A DNA stretch of 36,614 nucleotides from a bacterium (GCA_030626185.1 DAOUPL010000001.1:1-36614), one strand, 5' to 3'. Shown: positions 7,412 to 16,953, counted from the first letter of the stretch. Program-made: numbers and translations. Notes: generated from the sequence alone by a model not told the origin.

Positions 7412-8281
7412 TTAAAGAATTATACAACAATCTTCTTGCGGTTGCGTTCTTATTGCACCATTTCTTCGTAACGTACTTATAATGCTTCCTCTATAACATG
7501 AAGACCAATTAAGAAACCTATTTACTGCGCGATAAAGGTCAACTTTATTCCCTGTGCGGCGTGAAATAAATGCTTCATCCGTAGAAGCGTTATTATTTAA
7601 TAATAACTCTATTAAAAGTGGATAACGATAATGAATCCGAATACAGGAAGCTAAAAGATTAAGACGATACGATCTATATCGAATCTGTCCTAAATTTACA
7701 TCTGCTCCATGATCTATTAAACATCGAATTAAATCAAATCTCTTTAAATTTAGCGTCACTGAACATGCCAAAAATAATGGAGTTAATTCACAATCTTTTT
7801 CGTCATCTTGTATTGTTTCATTTATTTCTGCGTTGTTGTCCAATAATAATTTTACTTTTTCAAGATAACCTTTTGCACAAGCCAACATTAATGGCGAATG
7901 TCCAGGACCATTTCTTACTGAAACATCAGCACCATTTTCTAACAACAATCTCACGCTATCAACTGAGCCATACTCACACATTAAGCTTAAAACTGTATCA
8001 CCAAAACGATTTGACTCATTAATCGTGTCTTTGATTGTGTCATCTTCTTCTAGGAAGTTTTGCAATTCAGCATAATCTCCATAACAACACATTCGCATTA
8101 AAAAAGTATTACCGTTCTCATCAATACCATTGTCGCCATCTGTTAATGGAGAAATATTATTTCTGAAATATTCTGGCCATTGTTTTGTCGAGTTTTCATC
8201 AAAATCATCTAACGGTATGTATTCATCACTTGCAACAACCACATTACTCAAACAGATCAACAAAAACAAAATAAACTTCAC
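7412..8281 (-). CDS. Ankyrin-repeat protein with signal peptide and C-terminal CaaX-like box
   Basis: There are at least 4 ANK repeats: GNTFLMRMCCYGDYAELQNFL, GDTVLSLMCEYGSVDSVRLLLENGADV, GHSPLMLACAKGYLEKVKLLLDNNAEIN and LTPLFLACS..LIRCLIDHGADVN. The leader is MKFILFLLICLSNVVVAS with a GTG start after AAGGAG. The protein ends ..EDCCIIL. Confidence 0.85.
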   Translation of the reverse strand: MKFILFLLICLSNVVVASDEYIPLDDFDENSTKQWPEYFRNNISPLTDGDNGIDENGNTFLMRMCCYGDYAELQNFLEEDDTIKDTINESNRFGDTVLSLMCEYGSVDSVRLLLENGADVSVRNGPGHSPLMLACAKGYLEKVKLLLDNNAEINETIQDDEKDCELTPLFLACSVTLNLKRFDLIRCLIDHGADVNLGQIRYRSYRLNLLASCIRIHYRYPLLIELLLNNNASTDEAFISRRTGNKVDLYRAVNRFLNWSSCYRGSIISTLRRNGAIRTQPQEDCCIIL

Positions 8282-11563: not shown

Positions 11564-11848
11564 ATGATTCCAACAGAACTTTATTCAGTCTTTGTTGGCG
11601 CTTGTGCAGGAACTTTATATGGGCTTTCCTTTTTATTACAAGGGAAAGCCTTTTTTTCCTCCCAGCGCACTTCATCAAAGATAACACGACTCTTAATCCC
11701 ATTAATTCGCGTGACAAGCATCACCGTGTTGCTACTTTATCTATTGCGTTCTACGCCATTGCAGCCTATACTAATATTACTTTCGTTTTTAGTATTTTTT
11801 TGGATTAATATCCTACTTGCAAAGGCATCATCACATGGAAGGCTTTAG
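11564..11848 (+). CDS. Small membrane protein upstream of atpB (AtpI/AtpR-like by position)
   Basis: 94 aa with 3 hydrophobic segments. It lies immediately upstream of, and overlaps, the F0 a-subunit gene. The assignment rests on position only. Confidence 0.35.
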   Translation: MIPTELYSVFVGACAGTLYGLSFLLQGKAFFSSQRTSSKITRLLIPLIRVTSITVLLLYLLRSTPLQPILILLSFLVFFWINILLAKASSHGRL

Positions 11849-12566
11849 TCTTGCCAGCAAACATAGCTATCAACTATTATCTTTTTTAGGTATTAATCAC
11901 CCATTGCTATCAGTCAACATGGAAATAATCTTCCATACGTGGATAATTATGGGCATCATGATACTGACGCTTGTTGCTGCACGATTTATTTTGCATTACT
12001 CCATTGGTATTGCACGATTTACGGTTGTGCAAAGTGCGCAAACATTTATAAATTTGTGTGATGAATCTCTTGGTGAATTCAATTTTGCTCATGTGACCTT
12101 TATCACCACATTATTTTTGTTTATCGCTGGTTGCAATGTGTTACCAGTAATCCCGTGGCTTGAAGAACCAACACGTGATCTCAACACAACGCTTGCACTC
12201 GGCATTTTATCATTTTTGTACATCCAAAAAACCGATATTGCAACAAACGGCTTTATCAATTACATAAAAGGGTACTTTTCACCCTTCTTTTTATTGTTTC
12301 CACTCAACATTGTGGGCAAAATTGCCTCAATTGTTTCAGTTGCATTTCGTCTTTTTGGTAATATATTTGGTGGATCAATTATCACCACACTCTATTTTAC
12401 TGGATTATCAAAATCATGGTACTTACAAGTTTTTGGGATTGTAACCGGACTTAATTTATTAATTGTTGGTTTTTTCACCATCTTTGAAGGCATGTTGCAA
12501 GCATTTGTGTTTACCATGTTAACGCTGACGTATCTTGCAATGGCTACGCAAAAAGATGGTCGCTAA
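11835..12566 (+). CDS. atpB: F-type ATP synthase F0 subunit a
   Basis: FRLFGNIFGGSII carries the conserved stator Arg. The protein has 5-6 TM helices and sits just upstream of the c subunit. I use ATG 11835. The ORF opens at TTG 11817. Confidence 0.88.
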   Translation: MEGFSLASKHSYQLLSFLGINHPLLSVNMEIIFHTWIIMGIMILTLVAARFILHYSIGIARFTVVQSAQTFINLCDESLGEFNFAHVTFITTLFLFIAGCNVLPVIPWLEEPTRDLNTTLALGILSFLYIQKTDIATNGFINYIKGYFSPFFLLFPLNIVGKIASIVSVAFRLFGNIFGGSIITTLYFTGLSKSWYLQVFGIVTGLNLLIVGFFTIFEGMLQAFVFTMLTLTYLAMATQKDGR

Positions 12567-12585: not shown

Positions 12586-13551
12586 ATGATGTTTATTGCC
12601 TACTTTTTGCACTATTTTACTATTGCACTTGCTCTTGGCCTCAATTCATTAGGCGTTGGCATAGCTGAAGGACTCGTTGGCATTGCAGCAATAGATGCAA
12701 TAAACAAACAACCTCACGCGATGGATGCTATTCGTCGTACTGCGCTCATTGGCATGGCATTAATTGAAACAACCGCAATTATTAGTGTGTTAACCGTGAT
12801 CATGCTTGTGCTACAAACGCCTGACAGTGATGGTATGTGGTACACGTCATTAACTTCTATAGGTATTATTGCCGCAATTTGCATAAGTGGTTTTGTTATC
12901 AGTTTAATCTCAGCAGCACCGATACAATCAGCATGCAACACAATAGCACGACAACCATTTATGGCACAAAAAATATTAACGTTCATGATTATGACGCTTG
13001 CGATCATTCAAACACCAATCATTATCAATTTTGTACTCATGGTAATCATGTACAACAATGCGCTACAAAGTACTTGCTTAGCAGAAAGTTTACGATTAAT
13101 CTCAACTGGCATAAGTGTTGGCTTTGGTTGCATCGGCCCAGTAATTGGCATGAGCATCTTTGCAAAAACTGCATGCAAAAGTATTGGCATTAATCCACGT
13201 GCTTACAACAAAATTTTTGCATTTACACTTATTAGCCAAGCAATTATAGAAACTCCCGTAATTTTTGCTATTTTAGTCAGCGTTGTGCAACTATTTGTAA
13301 TTCCAACACTTACTGATAGCGAACTTCTTCGTGGCGTAGCATTACTCGCTGGTAGCATCGCCATCGGCATTGGCACGTTTGGCACTGGCATCTCTTCTGG
13401 CAAAACAGCCGCAGCGGCCTGCACGCAACTTGCAGAAAATCCTAAACAAAGTTCACAAGTTTCTCGCACAAGCCTCATCGCACAAGGACTTATTGAGACG
13501 ACCGCAATTTATAGTATTTTGCTCGCGCTTATCTTAACCTTTTTGTTCTAA
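12586..13551 (+). CDS. atpE: F-type ATP synthase subunit c, four fused c hairpins in one 321-aa polypeptide
   Basis: Four consecutive helix-loop-helix units are present. The polar loops are NKQP (aa 40-43), ARQP (121-124), GINP (201-204) and AENP (283-286). Exactly 18 residues after each loop Pro lie E61, Q142, E222 and E304. Gly-rich first helices occur in units 1, 3 and 4. The ORF has no in-frame stop. Confidence 0.8.
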   Translation: MMFIAYFLHYFTIALALGLNSLGVGIAEGLVGIAAIDAINKQPHAMDAIRRTALIGMALIETTAIISVLTVIMLVLQTPDSDGMWYTSLTSIGIIAAICISGFVISLISAAPIQSACNTIARQPFMAQKILTFMIMTLAIIQTPIIINFVLMVIMYNNALQSTCLAESLRLISTGISVGFGCIGPVIGMSIFAKTACKSIGINPRAYNKIFAFTLISQAIIETPVIFAILVSVVQLFVIPTLTDSELLRGVALLAGSIAIGIGTFGTGISSGKTAAAACTQLAENPKQSSQVSRTSLIAQGLIETTAIYSILLALILTFLF

Positions 13552-13612
13552 ACAAAAACTTGTTATAACTAAATAAACGGTAACAAACGCATAAAAAAGA
13601 GGAGTGTATACC

Positions 13613-14518
13613 GTGCACAAGTTGTACAATAATGTTCTTGATGCCATTGGCAACACACCATGCGTTAACGTAACGTTTAATGATACGCACTTTTATGCAA
13701 AATTAGAATACCTCAATCCTGGTGGCAGCATAAAAGATCGTTCAGCGCTGTATCTTATCGAACATGCTGAAAAAAACGGTTTACTCAAGCCCGGTTACAC
13801 AATCATCGATGCATCGTCAGGAAACCACGGCATTGCGTTGGCCATGATTGGTGCAATAAAAAACTATCCGGTGATCATTACCGTTTCAGAAAAGATAAGT
13901 AAAGAAAAGCATGACGCAATAAAAGCGTACGGAGCACAAACAATTATGTGCCCTGCAACAACTTTTTTAGAAGATGAACTAAGTTACCATAGTCAAGCAA
14001 AAAAACTACACGAACAAGATCCTCATTCGTTTATGCCCAATCAATACTTTAATCAAGTCAACGCTCAAGGCCATTATTATTCACTCGGGCCAGAATTGTG
14101 GAAACAAAGTAATGGAAAAATCACGCATCTTATCGCTGCAGCTGGCACTGGTGGCACCATAAGTGGCGCAGGAAAGTTTTTAAAAGAACAAAATTCAGAA
14201 ATACAAGTTATCGCCGTTGATGCACAAAACTCATATCGCTCAACAAACGGAAACCCACAACCATACCACGTTGAAGGTATGGGTGTGGATTTTGTTTCAC
14301 CAGTTTTAAATCACAACGTGATCGATAAATTTATTGCGGTAAACGATGATGACGCGTTTGCTATAATGCATTTACTCAGTAAACAACACGGTATTCTTGC
14401 CGGTCCGTCTAGCGGTGCTGTCGCACACGCCGCTCATGAATTTTGCAAAAATCACCAACCAGAATGTATGGTTGCTATTTTTGGTGATTCGGGGCGTGCG
14501 TACTTGAGCAAGTGCTAA
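13613..14518 (+). CDS. Cysteine synthase / cystathionine beta-synthase family PLP enzyme
   Basis: Motifs are LNPGGSIKDRSALY (Schiff-base Lys), SSGNHGIALA and AAAGTGGTISG. GTG 13613 lies 8 nt after AAGAGGAG (13597-13604). An in-frame GTG at 13604 is also possible. Confidence 0.85.
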   Translation: MHKLYNNVLDAIGNTPCVNVTFNDTHFYAKLEYLNPGGSIKDRSALYLIEHAEKNGLLKPGYTIIDASSGNHGIALAMIGAIKNYPVIITVSEKISKEKHDAIKAYGAQTIMCPATTFLEDELSYHSQAKKLHEQDPHSFMPNQYFNQVNAQGHYYSLGPELWKQSNGKITHLIAAAGTGGTISGAGKFLKEQNSEIQVIAVDAQNSYRSTNGNPQPYHVEGMGVDFVSPVLNHNVIDKFIAVNDDDAFAIMHLLSKQHGILAGPSSGAVAHAAHEFCKNHQPECMVAIFGDSGRAYLSKC

Positions 14519-15912
14519 CTTGTATAACTTGGTTGCGTTGTTCGTTGACCACCACCAAGGCCTGATGTTGTTTGTATATCACCTGGAAAAACAGTTTGTA
14601 AAATACCGGTAATAACATTATGGCCATCACTTCTTTCTACAGACTTTCCAAATTTATTACCCTTAATCCATTCTAATTGCTTATCTTTTGATAATCGTTT
14701 AGGATAACCGTCTAAAAACTTTCTTTGTGCTTTAGTTAATGAATCTGATATCAAAGCACGCTCTATTTCTTCATAAGAAAATATTTGTTTTTTAATTGGA
14801 ATAGAAAAATTAAGATACTTCGGAGAACCTTTAAACAAATTTGCTAAGCCTGTTACAATATTTATTAGCGCATTTGTTTCATTCACTCTTGCGCCAGTAC
14901 GGCCTTGTTTGTGTTGAGCACTTTCTGTAACTTCTTTTTTTATAACTTGTAATTGACTACCAGTTAACTCTAAACCAGAATCTTTCAATTGTTGATTGTT
15001 ATTAATCTGATCAAGCAAATTATTCGAAAATTCTCCATCATTACATTCATAATTTTCTTTTACGAACGGCTTTGCCAACTCCTTAAGATGGTAATTTTCA
15101 AAACCCAATTGGAATGCGGTTACAACATTTTCCATTTTTTGTCGCGTACCTTGTGATAACAAGTTTTCATATTGCTGTATTGCAGATTTTATTTCAACAT
15201 CTTTAAGCTTTTCTGCTTTTTCACATTGCTGTTCTGCAGATACTATTTGCCAATCCAAGCTTTCTCCTTGCTTTATAGAGTTTGCAAGTTGCTGTTTTGT
15301 AGATTTTATTTCAATAGGATTAAGCTTTTCTGCTCTATCATTTTGTAACTTTAAACCTGTTCCTTGATCTTCAGCGTTAGTAAGGTTTTGCTGCGCACTC
15401 CCCAACTCAACAATACTTCTTTCCTTATTTAGCCAATACGCACTTAAAGCAAAAAATTCAAGTTCTGTAACCATATCTGAATAAAATTTTAAGATATTTA
15501 ATGAATCATCATAATCGGGAAGACATTTTTTTTCTTGATATTTTTTAGAAAATGAGTCGACCACTTCTTTAAAAATAGGTCTTCTGTAACCCCAAAGACC
15601 TGATTGAATTTCTTCAATTTGAGCTTTTTGTATTGCTGAATTAAGTTGCAACTTTGCGCTTTCTAGATTTACTTCTTGAGTTTTATAGTCACCCTTTGCC
15701 CAAGATACAAAATAGCCTCCAGCAACTGCACTCAAAACACTTACGGTCAATTCAAAACCATACTTAATAACAAGTGGTTGAATTGCTGACCATAAATTGC
15801 CATTATTTTCATCAGGGTGTTCTTCAGCACATCTTACAAAATTTGATGAAGCCAACAGAACGCTCAAAACAAGAGAACTAAAAAATGATAACTTTTTCTT
15901 TTGTGCAAACAT
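14515..15912 (-). CDS. Secreted coiled-coil hypothetical protein with an internal 39-aa duplication
   Basis: AGAGG precedes ATG 15912. The signal peptide is MFAQKKKLSFFSSLVLSVLLASSNFVRCAE. The protein is Q/E/K-rich and helical, with duplicated AEKL(N/K)..EIKS..QQ units. I recognise no family. Confidence 0.6.
   Translation of the reverse strand: MFAQKKKLSFFSSLVLSVLLASSNFVRCAEEHPDENNGNLWSAIQPLVIKYGFELTVSVLSAVAGGYFVSWAKGDYKTQEVNLESAKLQLNSAIQKAQIEEIQSGLWGYRRPIFKEVVDSFSKKYQEKKCLPDYDDSLNILKFYSDMVTELEFFALSAYWLNKERSIVELGSAQQNLTNAEDQGTGLKLQNDRAEKLNPIEIKSTKQQLANSIKQGESLDWQIVSAEQQCEKAEKLKDVEIKSAIQQYENLLSQGTRQKMENVVTAFQLGFENYHLKELAKPFVKENYECNDGEFSNNLLDQINNNQQLKDSGLELTGSQLQVIKKEVTESAQHKQGRTGARVNETNALINIVTGLANLFKGSPKYLNFSIPIKKQIFSYEEIERALISDSLTKAQRKFLDGYPKRLSKDKQLEWIKGNKFGKSVERSDGHNVITGILQTVFPGDIQTTSGLGGGQRTTQPSYTS
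15184..15333 (-). repeat. Internal 117-bp-spaced duplication within CDS 14515..15912
   Basis: AGATTTTATTTCAA(CATC/TAGG)(T/A)TTAAGCTTTTCTGC occurs at 15184-15216 and 15301-15333. It encodes AEKLKDVEIKS and AEKLNPIEIKS. Confidence 0.8.
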
Positions 15913-15927
15913 AGGAACCTCTATAAT

Positions 15928-16953
15928 TTAAAATTCGAATTTACTGAATAAATCATCAAGCTCTTCTTCTTTTTGTTCATCACGCTCTTTGCCTTTTATA
16001 ATTCTGCGCAACAAGCTTCTAATTGAATCTTTTTTCTTTTTAACAATAAACACTGCTGACGTAATTACTGAAGCAGCCAAAATACTTTTACCAGAAGTTG
16101 TTGCTAGCAAAAAATTATACCATGAAAAACTATCTAAATACTGTTGCTGTACAATGCTTGGAATCTCTAATGGCCAGATTGCTATTTCATAAAAACGTTT
16201 AAATAAAGTATTTTCTTCGTTTTCAATTTTTTCTTTTTTACGATCTTCTTTTTCATTGTTTACCATTTTTGTGAGCTCTTTAATCTCAACTTCTTTAGCA
16301 TGGTAATATAATTTTTTCTCTTCTAATCTTTCTAAAAAAGCAAGTTCAAAAAACAATGCATTTTCTATTTCTTCTTTATCATTACTACTTTTAGCTTTTT
16401 GCCAATCGTTAAACAAACGCAAAGCTTTATTACCAGAAATTTTCGCTATCGAAATTTCTTCTTCACCACTAATCAAAACTCTCTGTACATCGATTAAATG
16501 CTTAGAACACATAGAAAGATAGCTTCTGAGTACTTCAATCTCTACAACACCATCTTTGGCATGCTTGCCTCCCAGTAAATTTGGTATACCAAGATTCTCT
16601 AATTGATTTTTCAAATCTTCTTGCGTGTCTAGGTGAAAAGAATCTTGTGCTAATTGCGAAGCATTGTACACAATCTGTGCTCGTTGAGAAAGCTGATTAG
16701 CAAGTGCATCTATTTGTTGCCCAATGTGATGAAGCGTACCATCCACTCCTAAATCATTTTTAGTCCAATTAACAGTTGCTATTTCTAGAATGTTATTTCG
16801 CGTCCAAAGTGATGAATCACTTTTAAAATCATCATGATGCATACGCTCACATAAAACTATGTTACTAAACGCCAAAAATCCACACATCACCAACACCGTC
16901 AGTAACGTATTCTTCTTTTTTTGTGCTTGTTTATTCATGTTAAAAAAAATCAT
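15928..16953 (-). CDS. Secreted/membrane-anchored coiled-coil hypothetical protein
   Basis: The leader ..MNKQAQKKKNTLLTVLVMCGFLAFSNIVLCE resembles that of the downstream gene. A C-proximal TM helix (ILAASVITSAVFIV) is followed by a charged tail. An alternative start is ATG 16938. Confidence 0.6.
   Translation of the reverse strand: MIFFNMNKQAQKKKNTLLTVLVMCGFLAFSNIVLCERMHHDDFKSDSSLWTRNNILEIATVNWTKNDLGVDGTLHHIGQQIDALANQLSQRAQIVYNASQLAQDSFHLDTQEDLKNQLENLGIPNLLGGKHAKDGVVEIEVLRSYLSMCSKHLIDVQRVLISGEEEISIAKISGNKALRLFNDWQKAKSSNDKEEIENALFFELAFLERLEEKKLYYHAKEVEIKELTKMVNNEKEDRKKEKIENEENTLFKRFYEIAIWPLEIPSIVQQQYLDSFSWYNFLLATTSGKSILAASVITSAVFIVKKKKDSIRSLLRRIIKGKERDEQKEEELDDLFSKFEF

Follow-up and report, generated by a model that had tools for sequence, protein, structure and literature searches.

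How the rotor ring of an F-type ATP synthase would be built, and geared, when its c subunit is not the usual single hairpin is the question raised by a gene located in a 36,614-nucleotide stretch of bacterial DNA (GCA_030626185.1 DAOUPL010000001.1:1-36614), the whole of which is referred to here as the window. Directly after atpB, on the plus strand at positions 12586..13551, an uninterrupted open reading frame (ORF) encodes 321 amino acids (aa) followed by a stop codon, and departs from the plan of AtpE, i.e. one hairpin of about 70-90 aa, in that it holds four hairpins in a single frame. We consider it likely that this fused four-hairpin c subunit, hereafter c4, is the rotor proteolipid of the F-type ATPase of the Dependentiae (TM6/Babelota), and that it would thereby form rings of 4n hairpins translocating 25% fewer ions per ATP.

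An initial annotation, made from the DNA sequence alone, had already read four F-type hairpins in this ORF, and a search with PF00137 (ATP-synt_C) from Pfam, which was expected to return four matches, indeed returned four separate stretches (whole-protein E-value of 2.3e-32, 111.5 bits compared to a cut-off of 24). The unit limits given by a hidden Markov model (HMM) trained on the hairpins of the c4 family itself, aa 8-77, 90-157, 169-237 and 252-319, are close to those first noted (12-77, 92-157, 172-238 and 253-321). When the units, of about 80 aa each, are aligned, the loop proline and the ion-binding position are in register, the ion-site residue being found 18 residues past the loop proline in all four hairpins. 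Hairpin 1 (12607..12816) combines GVGIAEG in helix 1 and the loop NKQP with the active carboxylate E61 (GAA, 12766-12768). Hairpin 2 (12853..13056) has the loop ARQPF, lacks the GxGxGxG motif of helix 1, and bears Q142 (CAA, 13009-13011) instead of a carboxylate. Hairpin 3 (13090..13296), whose loop GINP is GINR in most relatives, carries the active carboxylate E222 (GAA, 13249-13251) in the motif IIETPVIF, and hairpin 4 (13339..13542), with the loop AENP, carries E304 (GAG, 13495-13497). Midway along the C-terminal helix, the carboxylate (Glu or Asp) that binds the ion is thus present in hairpins 1, 3 and 4, and absent from hairpin 2. These four residues and their spacing are exactly as first claimed, as are the codons given for E61 and Q142, and the unit alignment bears out the loss of the glycine-rich motif from unit 2. 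In the same line, the monomer model predicted by AlphaFold2 from 32 homologues (predicted local distance difference test, pLDDT, 92.6; predicted template modelling score, pTM, 0.89) is made up of eight long helices. Its turns, at residues 42, 123, 203 and 285, coincide with the four polar loops KQP, RQP, INP and ENP, in agreement with the eight transmembrane helices and the loops named at the outset.

The fused gene is far from unique to this window. A search of 5.8 billion proteins yielded 654 homologues of c4, the best 120 of which are all 316-330 aa long and 46-96% identical to it, originate from NCBI, JGI, ENA and Logan and, where named, are labelled 'ATP synthase F0 subunit C [Candidatus Dependentiae/Babeliales]'. 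At greater distance, 150 clusters with an E-value of 1e-30 or lower were found in a library of representatives at 50% identity; nearly all of them are 305-330 aa long, with identity going down to about 28%. The scan of one genome per GTDB species gave 61 distinct c4 loci; the comparisons below concern 64 loci from 61 species or, with the window added, 65 sequences. Where the loci have names at the phylum level, these are Dependentiae, Babeliales or TM6, the others, labelled 'bacterium', 'uncultured bacterium' or 'uncultured Pseudomonadota', being assigned to the Dependentiae by homology and synteny. Several metagenome-assembled genomes (MAGs) with a Dependentiae-type atpB-c4 pair (L007, L009, L020, L027-L029, L034, L057, L062 and L064) are deposited as 'uncultured Pseudomonadota bacterium', which is probably a taxonomic mislabel. 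The loci include the complete genome AP025250.1, long-read assemblies and a number of records above 1 Mb, each deposited as one chromosome. In all 64 loci, c4 is recovered by tblastn as one high-scoring segment pair (HSP), in one frame and devoid of stops, so that neither a frameshift nor a stop splits the ORF, and a single-frame four-hairpin gene following an F-type a gene is found across the 61 species, outcomes that favour the initial annotation under the refuting conditions it had itself set. Within the ORF of the window, there are no near-identical DNA repeats, the only matches being short (30 nt or less) and of about 60-80% identity, which makes a collapse of tandem atpE paralogues during assembly not plausible.

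The gene is also under purifying selection, with a dN/dS ratio of 0.08-0.11 against relatives at 96% and 87% identity that come from independent sequencing runs; the Gln-bearing hairpin 2 shows the lowest or near-lowest ratio among the hairpins (0.04-0.06). The four units are 23-29% identical among themselves, while each of them is 45-57% identical across species. Units being more alike across species than within the chain, the fusion is old, and each position in the chain is under constraints of its own. A stepwise duplication from c to c2 and then to c4 was considered and is not supported, as the profiles pair units 3 and 4, and 1 and 4, best, rather than 1 with 3 and 2 with 4.

The F-type nature of c4 is indicated both by its own sequence and by its partner. 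Among the NCBIfam models, those for F-type c subunits are top-scoring, the V-type K models coming below. On the same strand, atpB (11835..12566) encodes an intact F-type Fo a subunit, the part of the stator that holds the ion channel (PF00119, E-value of 6e-33); the ORF list gives it a TTG start at 11817, and close relatives of 243 aa (L071, L073) point to the ATG at 11835, from which the product would probably be 243 aa long as well. Its nearest solved relative is the a subunit of Bacillus PS3 (E-value of 8.6e-18); it also aligns with the mycobacterial, chloroplast and E. coli a subunits, and carries the QAFVFTMLT (QAFVF) motif. The codon of the essential stator Arg (CGT, 12348..12350) is found in the motif FRLFGNIFGG, which aligns with the conserved LRLFGNI motif holding this Arg in the a subunits of known structure, and we take this residue to be the equivalent of aR210 of E. 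coli. The Arg motif is present in 61 of the 64 loci, and an a-subunit gene lies immediately 5' of c4 in every one of them. At one of these loci, on a 1.73-Mb long-read chromosome (L003:9240-9980), the gene caller gives no a subunit 5' of c4, but tblastn shows an intact a-subunit frame (56% identity over aa 2-247); the gene is present and its absence from the gene calls is an annotation gap. A V-type identity of c4 was rejected in view of the F-type a stator gene, together with the best scores being those for F-type c models.

Regarding known structures, the solved chain closest to c4, both by sequence (E-value of 3.1e-14) and by fold (rmsd of 1.9 Å over 158 columns), is the F-type c1 subunit of Acetobacterium woodii (4BEM chain J, 4bem_J), which had been rightly cited as the known two-hairpin precedent; among the Protein Data Bank (PDB) chains compared, none spans more than two of the four hairpins. 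Like c4, c1 consists of F-type hairpins fused in one chain in an F-type setting, and in both of them a Gln hairpin comes after a carboxylate hairpin (E, Q in c1; hairpins 1 and 2 in c4). However, c1 has two hairpins and one site, and only one copy of it accompanies nine monomeric c2/c3 subunits (PMC9171764), whereas c4 has four hairpins and three sites, lies near no monomeric c gene, and presumably forms a homo-oligomeric ring. The proteolipids of V/A-type enzymes, namely E. hirae NtpK, the eukaryotic c/c'/c'' and the archaeal c subunits of two, three or 13 hairpins, match the fold of c4 over two hairpins and resemble it in that hairpins were multiplied and fused before some ion sites were lost, lowering the number of ions per ATP (PMC9171764). 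Nevertheless, they pair with a V-type a/I stator, while c4 pairs with an F-type a subunit (PF00119) and scores best on F-type c models. Archaeal multi-hairpin c subunits are found in Pyrococcus, in Methanocaldococcus jannaschii (three hairpins, two sites) and in Methanopyrus kandleri (13 hairpins). To our knowledge, no V/A-type proteolipid has three sites in four hairpins.

Is the missing carboxylate of hairpin 2 a property of the family? Across the 65 sequences, E61 and E222 are invariant, as is Y309; position 142 is Gln in 63, Val in one and Glu in one; and at position 304, 43 of them have Asp and 22 have Glu. The Gln142 codon of the window, CAA, is one base away from the Glu codon GAA, and Gln is kept all the same. 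As for the fourth carboxylate (13495-13497 in the window; L004-L064), the finding of Asp in two thirds of the species means that most rings would mix Glu and Asp sites. In the larger set of 269 retrieved proteins, the pattern E-Q-E-(E/D) is found in 201; a further 18 have E-E-E-(E/D), seven have Met, Leu or Val at site 2, and five have Asp at site 1. In a midpoint-rooted neighbour-joining tree, the E-E-E-(E/D) proteins form one contiguous clade (hereafter the EEEE clade) beside the large E-Q-E clade. Two loci of this all-carboxylate type (L067:10001-10960 and L068:10001-10954; EEEE or EEED, about 18 clusters in the clade) show the same arrangement of small ORF, atpB, c4 and glycosyltransferase gene as the E-Q-E loci. 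A clade with the same synteny and all four carboxylates suggests that the fusion probably predates the loss of the carboxylate, as read from these sequences, the midpoint rooting leaving a reversion possible.

In the mechanism that we propose, four diverged c hairpins, joined head to tail by short linkers, would make up one chain with eight transmembrane helices. The termini of an F-type c hairpin sit on the periplasmic side, where the linkers of c4 would hence be expected. Several copies would close into a c-ring of 8, 12 or 16 hairpins, three copies, i.e. 12 hairpins, being held the most likely. Known F-type rings comprise 8-17 hairpins, including 8 and 12 (PMC7594442). During rotation, E61, E222 and E/D304 would carry ions, and the Gln hairpin would pass the stator Arg of subunit a empty, so that a turn of the ring would move three ions per c4 copy and not four, which is the 25% reduction. 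With n copies, the ring would have 4n hairpins and 3n sites, and the enzyme would translocate n ions per ATP (2, 3 or 4), compared to 2.7, 4 or 5.3 without the loss.

Such a gearing would make sense for an enzyme that works as an ATP-driven pump. According to two genome studies, the Dependentiae possess neither a tricarboxylic acid (TCA) cycle nor an electron transport chain and obtain host ATP via ATP/ADP translocases, while all members examined encode an ATP synthase that probably runs in reverse to keep the membrane potential (PMC4776705; PMC6561590). Given the lack of a respiratory chain and the import of host ATP, the enzyme is thought to be an ATP-driven pump, a direction taken here from that literature, and fewer ions per ATP would allow it to hold a larger ion-motive force at the same ATP/ADP ratio. 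In V-type c subunits, a duplication followed by site loss is generally accepted to keep the ring size, to cut the number of ions per ATP and to let the pump build a steeper gradient (PMC9171764). By analogy, the c4 enzyme is probably a lower-geared ATP-driven ion pump, and the initial suggestion that a lowered ion/ATP ratio favours ATP-driven pumping fits this published view of an ATP synthase that works in the opposite direction.

Several points nevertheless weigh against this proposal. A gearing change of 25% is modest and, since the fusion exists without site loss in the EEEE clade, gearing cannot explain the fusion itself. Neither the window nor the 10 kb around c4 at any of the loci contains an F1, b or delta gene, and the association of c4 with F1 comes only from published genome descriptions (PMC4776705; PMC6561590). 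In the window and the 64 loci, one four-hairpin c ORF is found each time and there is no monomeric c gene within 10 kb on either side, in keeping with the initial reading that no single-hairpin atpE lies nearby, a result that concerns these surroundings and not whole genomes, which were not scanned. Finally, in an engineered single-chain c10 of Bacillus PS3, one hairpin with E56Q abolished ATP synthesis, and E56D lowered the activity (PMC8809890). A Gln hairpin is thus not automatically tolerated, its role in c4 may exceed that of a silent gap, and other changes must make the natural Gln hairpin, as well as the mix of Asp and Glu, tolerable. For the Gln hairpin, a role of its own may exist, for example in stalk docking or as a detent.

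Of the other explanations, the one that survives best, although we hold it to be rather unlikely, is a hybrid rotor of the A. woodii type, in which c4 would be a minor partner of a monomeric c encoded elsewhere and the ring size would not be tied to multiples of four. A. woodii indeed mixes c1 with nine single-hairpin c subunits (PMC9171764), and multi-hairpin c genes outside the Dependentiae adjoin monomeric c genes in classic operons. One of these (L066:8919-12596) has the order atpI-a-c5-c-b-b', with a five-hairpin c (E,Q,Q,Q,Q); two others (L069:225-2015 and the P0245 contig) have c4-c-b, with four-hairpin c subunits (E,Q,Q,Q and E,Q,Q,H), and in all three the multi-hairpin gene is followed by a normal c gene of 80-83 aa. 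These gene sets are of the hybrid rotor type known from A. woodii, with larger multi-hairpin members. In the Dependentiae, however, there is no such second c ORF in the surroundings covered by the scan, and whereas the hybrid-type proteins keep a single carboxylate (EQQQ, EQQQQ), c4 keeps three or four, as would be expected for the main ion carrier.

Distinctly improbable as the whole explanation is the possibility that assembly or stalk docking, and not gearing, is what the fusion and the Gln hairpin are for: the fusion would fix the stoichiometry without a chaperone, hairpin 2 would bind the gamma/epsilon foot, and the loss of the carboxylate would be a tolerated side effect. The loops are indeed diverged, each unit having its own conserved signature. 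R122, Q123 and P124 of hairpin 2 are invariant or nearly so, the RQPF loop is invariant in this hairpin only, and unit 3 has mostly lost Q-P among the relatives. The EEEE clade, in which the fusion occurs without site loss, points in the same direction. On the other hand, the specific retention of Gln at position 142, one base away from Glu, indicates selection on the site itself. Assembly or docking is in any case compatible with the reading of c4 as a lower-geared rotor proteolipid, and does not exclude it.

A further alternative, in which the a-c4 pair would be an F1-free ion-conducting or rotary membrane module, appears very improbable. It draws on the fact that, at every locus, the pair stands apart from the remaining ATP synthase genes: among the other ORFs of the window scanned with Pfam, none is an ATP synthase gene, and a six-frame search of the 65 sequences for the Walker motifs of alpha and beta found none within 10 kb of c4. 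Yet, bacteria commonly have split atp operons, the RQP-type loops on the cytoplasmic side, through which F-type enzymes touch the central stalk, are conserved, and an ATP synthase is reported in all Dependentiae examined (PMC4776705; PMC6561590). Finally, the readings of the ORF as an artefact of the assembly, as tandem paralogues with frameshifts or as a pseudogene in decay can be regarded as refuted, their probability being negligible, since nothing was found in their favour and the same ORF recurs in independent NCBI, ENA, JGI and Logan assemblies, megabase contigs and complete genomes or chromosomes included, as a single stop-free HSP per locus, without strong repeats and with a dN/dS of about 0.1.

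Besides the preferred reading of c4 as a lower-geared rotor proteolipid, a more far-reaching joint reading can be put forward, tentatively and with considerable doubt. Three c4 copies would form a 12-hairpin ring working at exactly three ions per ATP, whose threefold symmetry would match that of F1, and a Gln hairpin would meet the stator Arg once per 120-degree step and would act as a built-in detent biasing the enzyme towards ATP-driven pumping. Multi-hairpin F-type c subunits would moreover be widespread in uncultivated bacteria, natural forms with 3, 4, 5 and 13 hairpins retaining at least one, and at most all, of their carboxylates. In this context, three-hairpin c subunits were also retrieved (P0264, with E,Q,Q, and P0256), which are known from proteins alone, as well as a five-hairpin c in which all sites are Glu (P0251). 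The largest form is a 968-aa c subunit with 13 fused hairpins (L065:10001-12907, plus strand), directly 5' of an F-type a gene (12967-13863), with a further c-like ORF from 13896. In each of its hairpins, helix 1 bears GxGEG and helix 2 LVESAAIY, which resembles the two-carboxylate Na+ motif, and its gene contains 90 in-frame TGA codons read as Gly (genetic code 25) on a contig of 29% G+C, which suggests a bacterium related to the Gracilibacteria or the Absconditabacteria. This protein may be a single-chain F-type rotor ring. The multi-hairpin c genes of L065, L066 and L069, as yet undescribed, all lie in F-type clusters, with an a gene (PF00119), a b gene (PF00430) or a monomeric c gene alongside.

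With respect to the coupling ion, Na+ had first been hinted at on the grounds of E-T-T in units 1 and 4, Y at +5 in unit 4 and E28 in unit 1. In the structure of E. hirae NtpK, the preceding hairpin reportedly supplies Na+ ligands to the site of its neighbour, and residues of c4 were assigned to the ion sites by analogy with this protein. The Na+ motif of Ilyobacter tartaricus and F. nucleatum comprises Q/E32, E65, S/T66, T67 and Y70, the site being formed by Q/E32 and E65 of one hairpin and by S66, the V63 carbonyl and Y70 of the neighbouring one (PMC3692424). On the NtpK-based assignment, the E61 site would be Na+-like, combining E/Q28, E61 and T62 of unit 1 with T305 and Y309 from unit 4; the E222 site would have Leu or Met in place of Q32 and Pro in place of T67; and the site of position 304 would contain Ser271. 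E28 is indeed present in the window (GAA, 12667-12669), at the position equivalent to Gln32 of I. tartaricus. Position 28 is, however, Glu in only 25 of the 65 sequences, against Gln in 29 and other residues in 11, and T63 is replaced by Ala in 45. The EEEE clade has Gln in unit 3 at the Q32 position, where the E-Q-E clade has Leu. As E28 and T63 are not conserved and the unit 3 site lacks an equivalent of Gln32, H+ is favoured and, judging from the residues present, is the more likely coupling ion of the c4 enzyme, the hint at Na+ remaining weak.

Concerning the surroundings of the pair, a small hydrophobic ORF of 94 aa (11564..11848, plus strand) overlaps the start of atpB, in the usual place of atpI. 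It has no Pfam or NCBIfam match, but is conserved at 92-95 aa, homologues in the same place being detected by tblastn at 37 Dependentiae loci, and ORFs of 92-94 aa are called in L002, L067 and L068; it may be a divergent AtpI-like ring-assembly factor. The gene 3' of c4 in the window encodes a cysteine-synthase-like PALP enzyme, and the shared neighbourhood, at about 50% protein identity, comprises gltX, rbfA, a prepilin peptidase gene, sua5, a folC-like gene, the small ORF, atpB, c4, an optional glycosyltransferase gene and cysK. The window as a whole has 36% G+C and also encodes an ankyrin protein, a type IV pilin, a prepilin peptidase and DciA; the homologues that carry names point to a source among the Candidatus Dependentiae/Babeliales. 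Genes on its minus strand (7412-8281, 20533-22392 and 14515-16953) are candidates for host interaction or effector functions. Such candidates in the window include a secreted-looking ankyrin-repeat protein and a protein of 619 aa whose C-terminal domain is a bacterial EndoU nuclease, with a small ORF after it as a possible immunity gene; there are also two large coiled-coil-like ORFs without a family match.

To what extent is this architecture new? The full-text search of one literature library returned no description of a multi-hairpin F-type c subunit in Dependentiae or metagenomes, which holds for that library only. The initial annotation, likewise, knew of no four-hairpin F-type c subunit. 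At the same time, c4 is no peculiarity of one genome, belonging as it does to a phylum-wide family already present in public databases. Multi-hairpin proteolipids with site loss being known already, what is apparently new is an F-type c subunit with four hairpins and three of four sites, fixed across a phylum and apparently its sole c subunit. Engineered fusions, namely the c2 and c3 of E. coli (Jones and Fillingame 1998) and the c10 of PS3 (Mitome 2004), show that linked F-type hairpins form working rings (PMC8809890). These are nevertheless artificial, made of identical repeats and designed linkers, while c4 is natural, has a Gln hairpin at every fourth position and is conserved across a phylum.

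The ion/ATP ratio, a basic parameter of bioenergetics, is set by how many ion sites the c-ring has, and a fusion of hairpins followed by the deletion of a site was previously documented as a route to it in V/A-type enzymes and in a single F-type case, the c1 of A. woodii. Here, an F-type ring is apparently built wholly from a chain of four hairpins in which three of the four sites are kept, an architecture that is fixed across a phylum of parasites that live on host energy, their enzyme being thought to be a pump only. It predicts rings limited to 8, 12 or 16 hairpins and integer ion/ATP ratios, and the cultivated hosts that exist for Babela, Vermiphilus and Chromulinavorax make these predictions experimentally accessible. 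The sister EEEE clade allows the loss of one site to be compared in otherwise similar proteins, and the contrast with the c10 of PS3 raises the question of which adaptations make a Gln hairpin tolerable. If the more far-reaching reading, with multi-hairpin F-type c subunits widespread in uncultivated bacteria, is true, the 'evolutionary playground' of rotor gearing, so far that of archaeal A-type enzymes, would extend to bacterial F-type enzymes, and the Dependentiae would provide a natural before-and-after series, from EEEE to EQEE.

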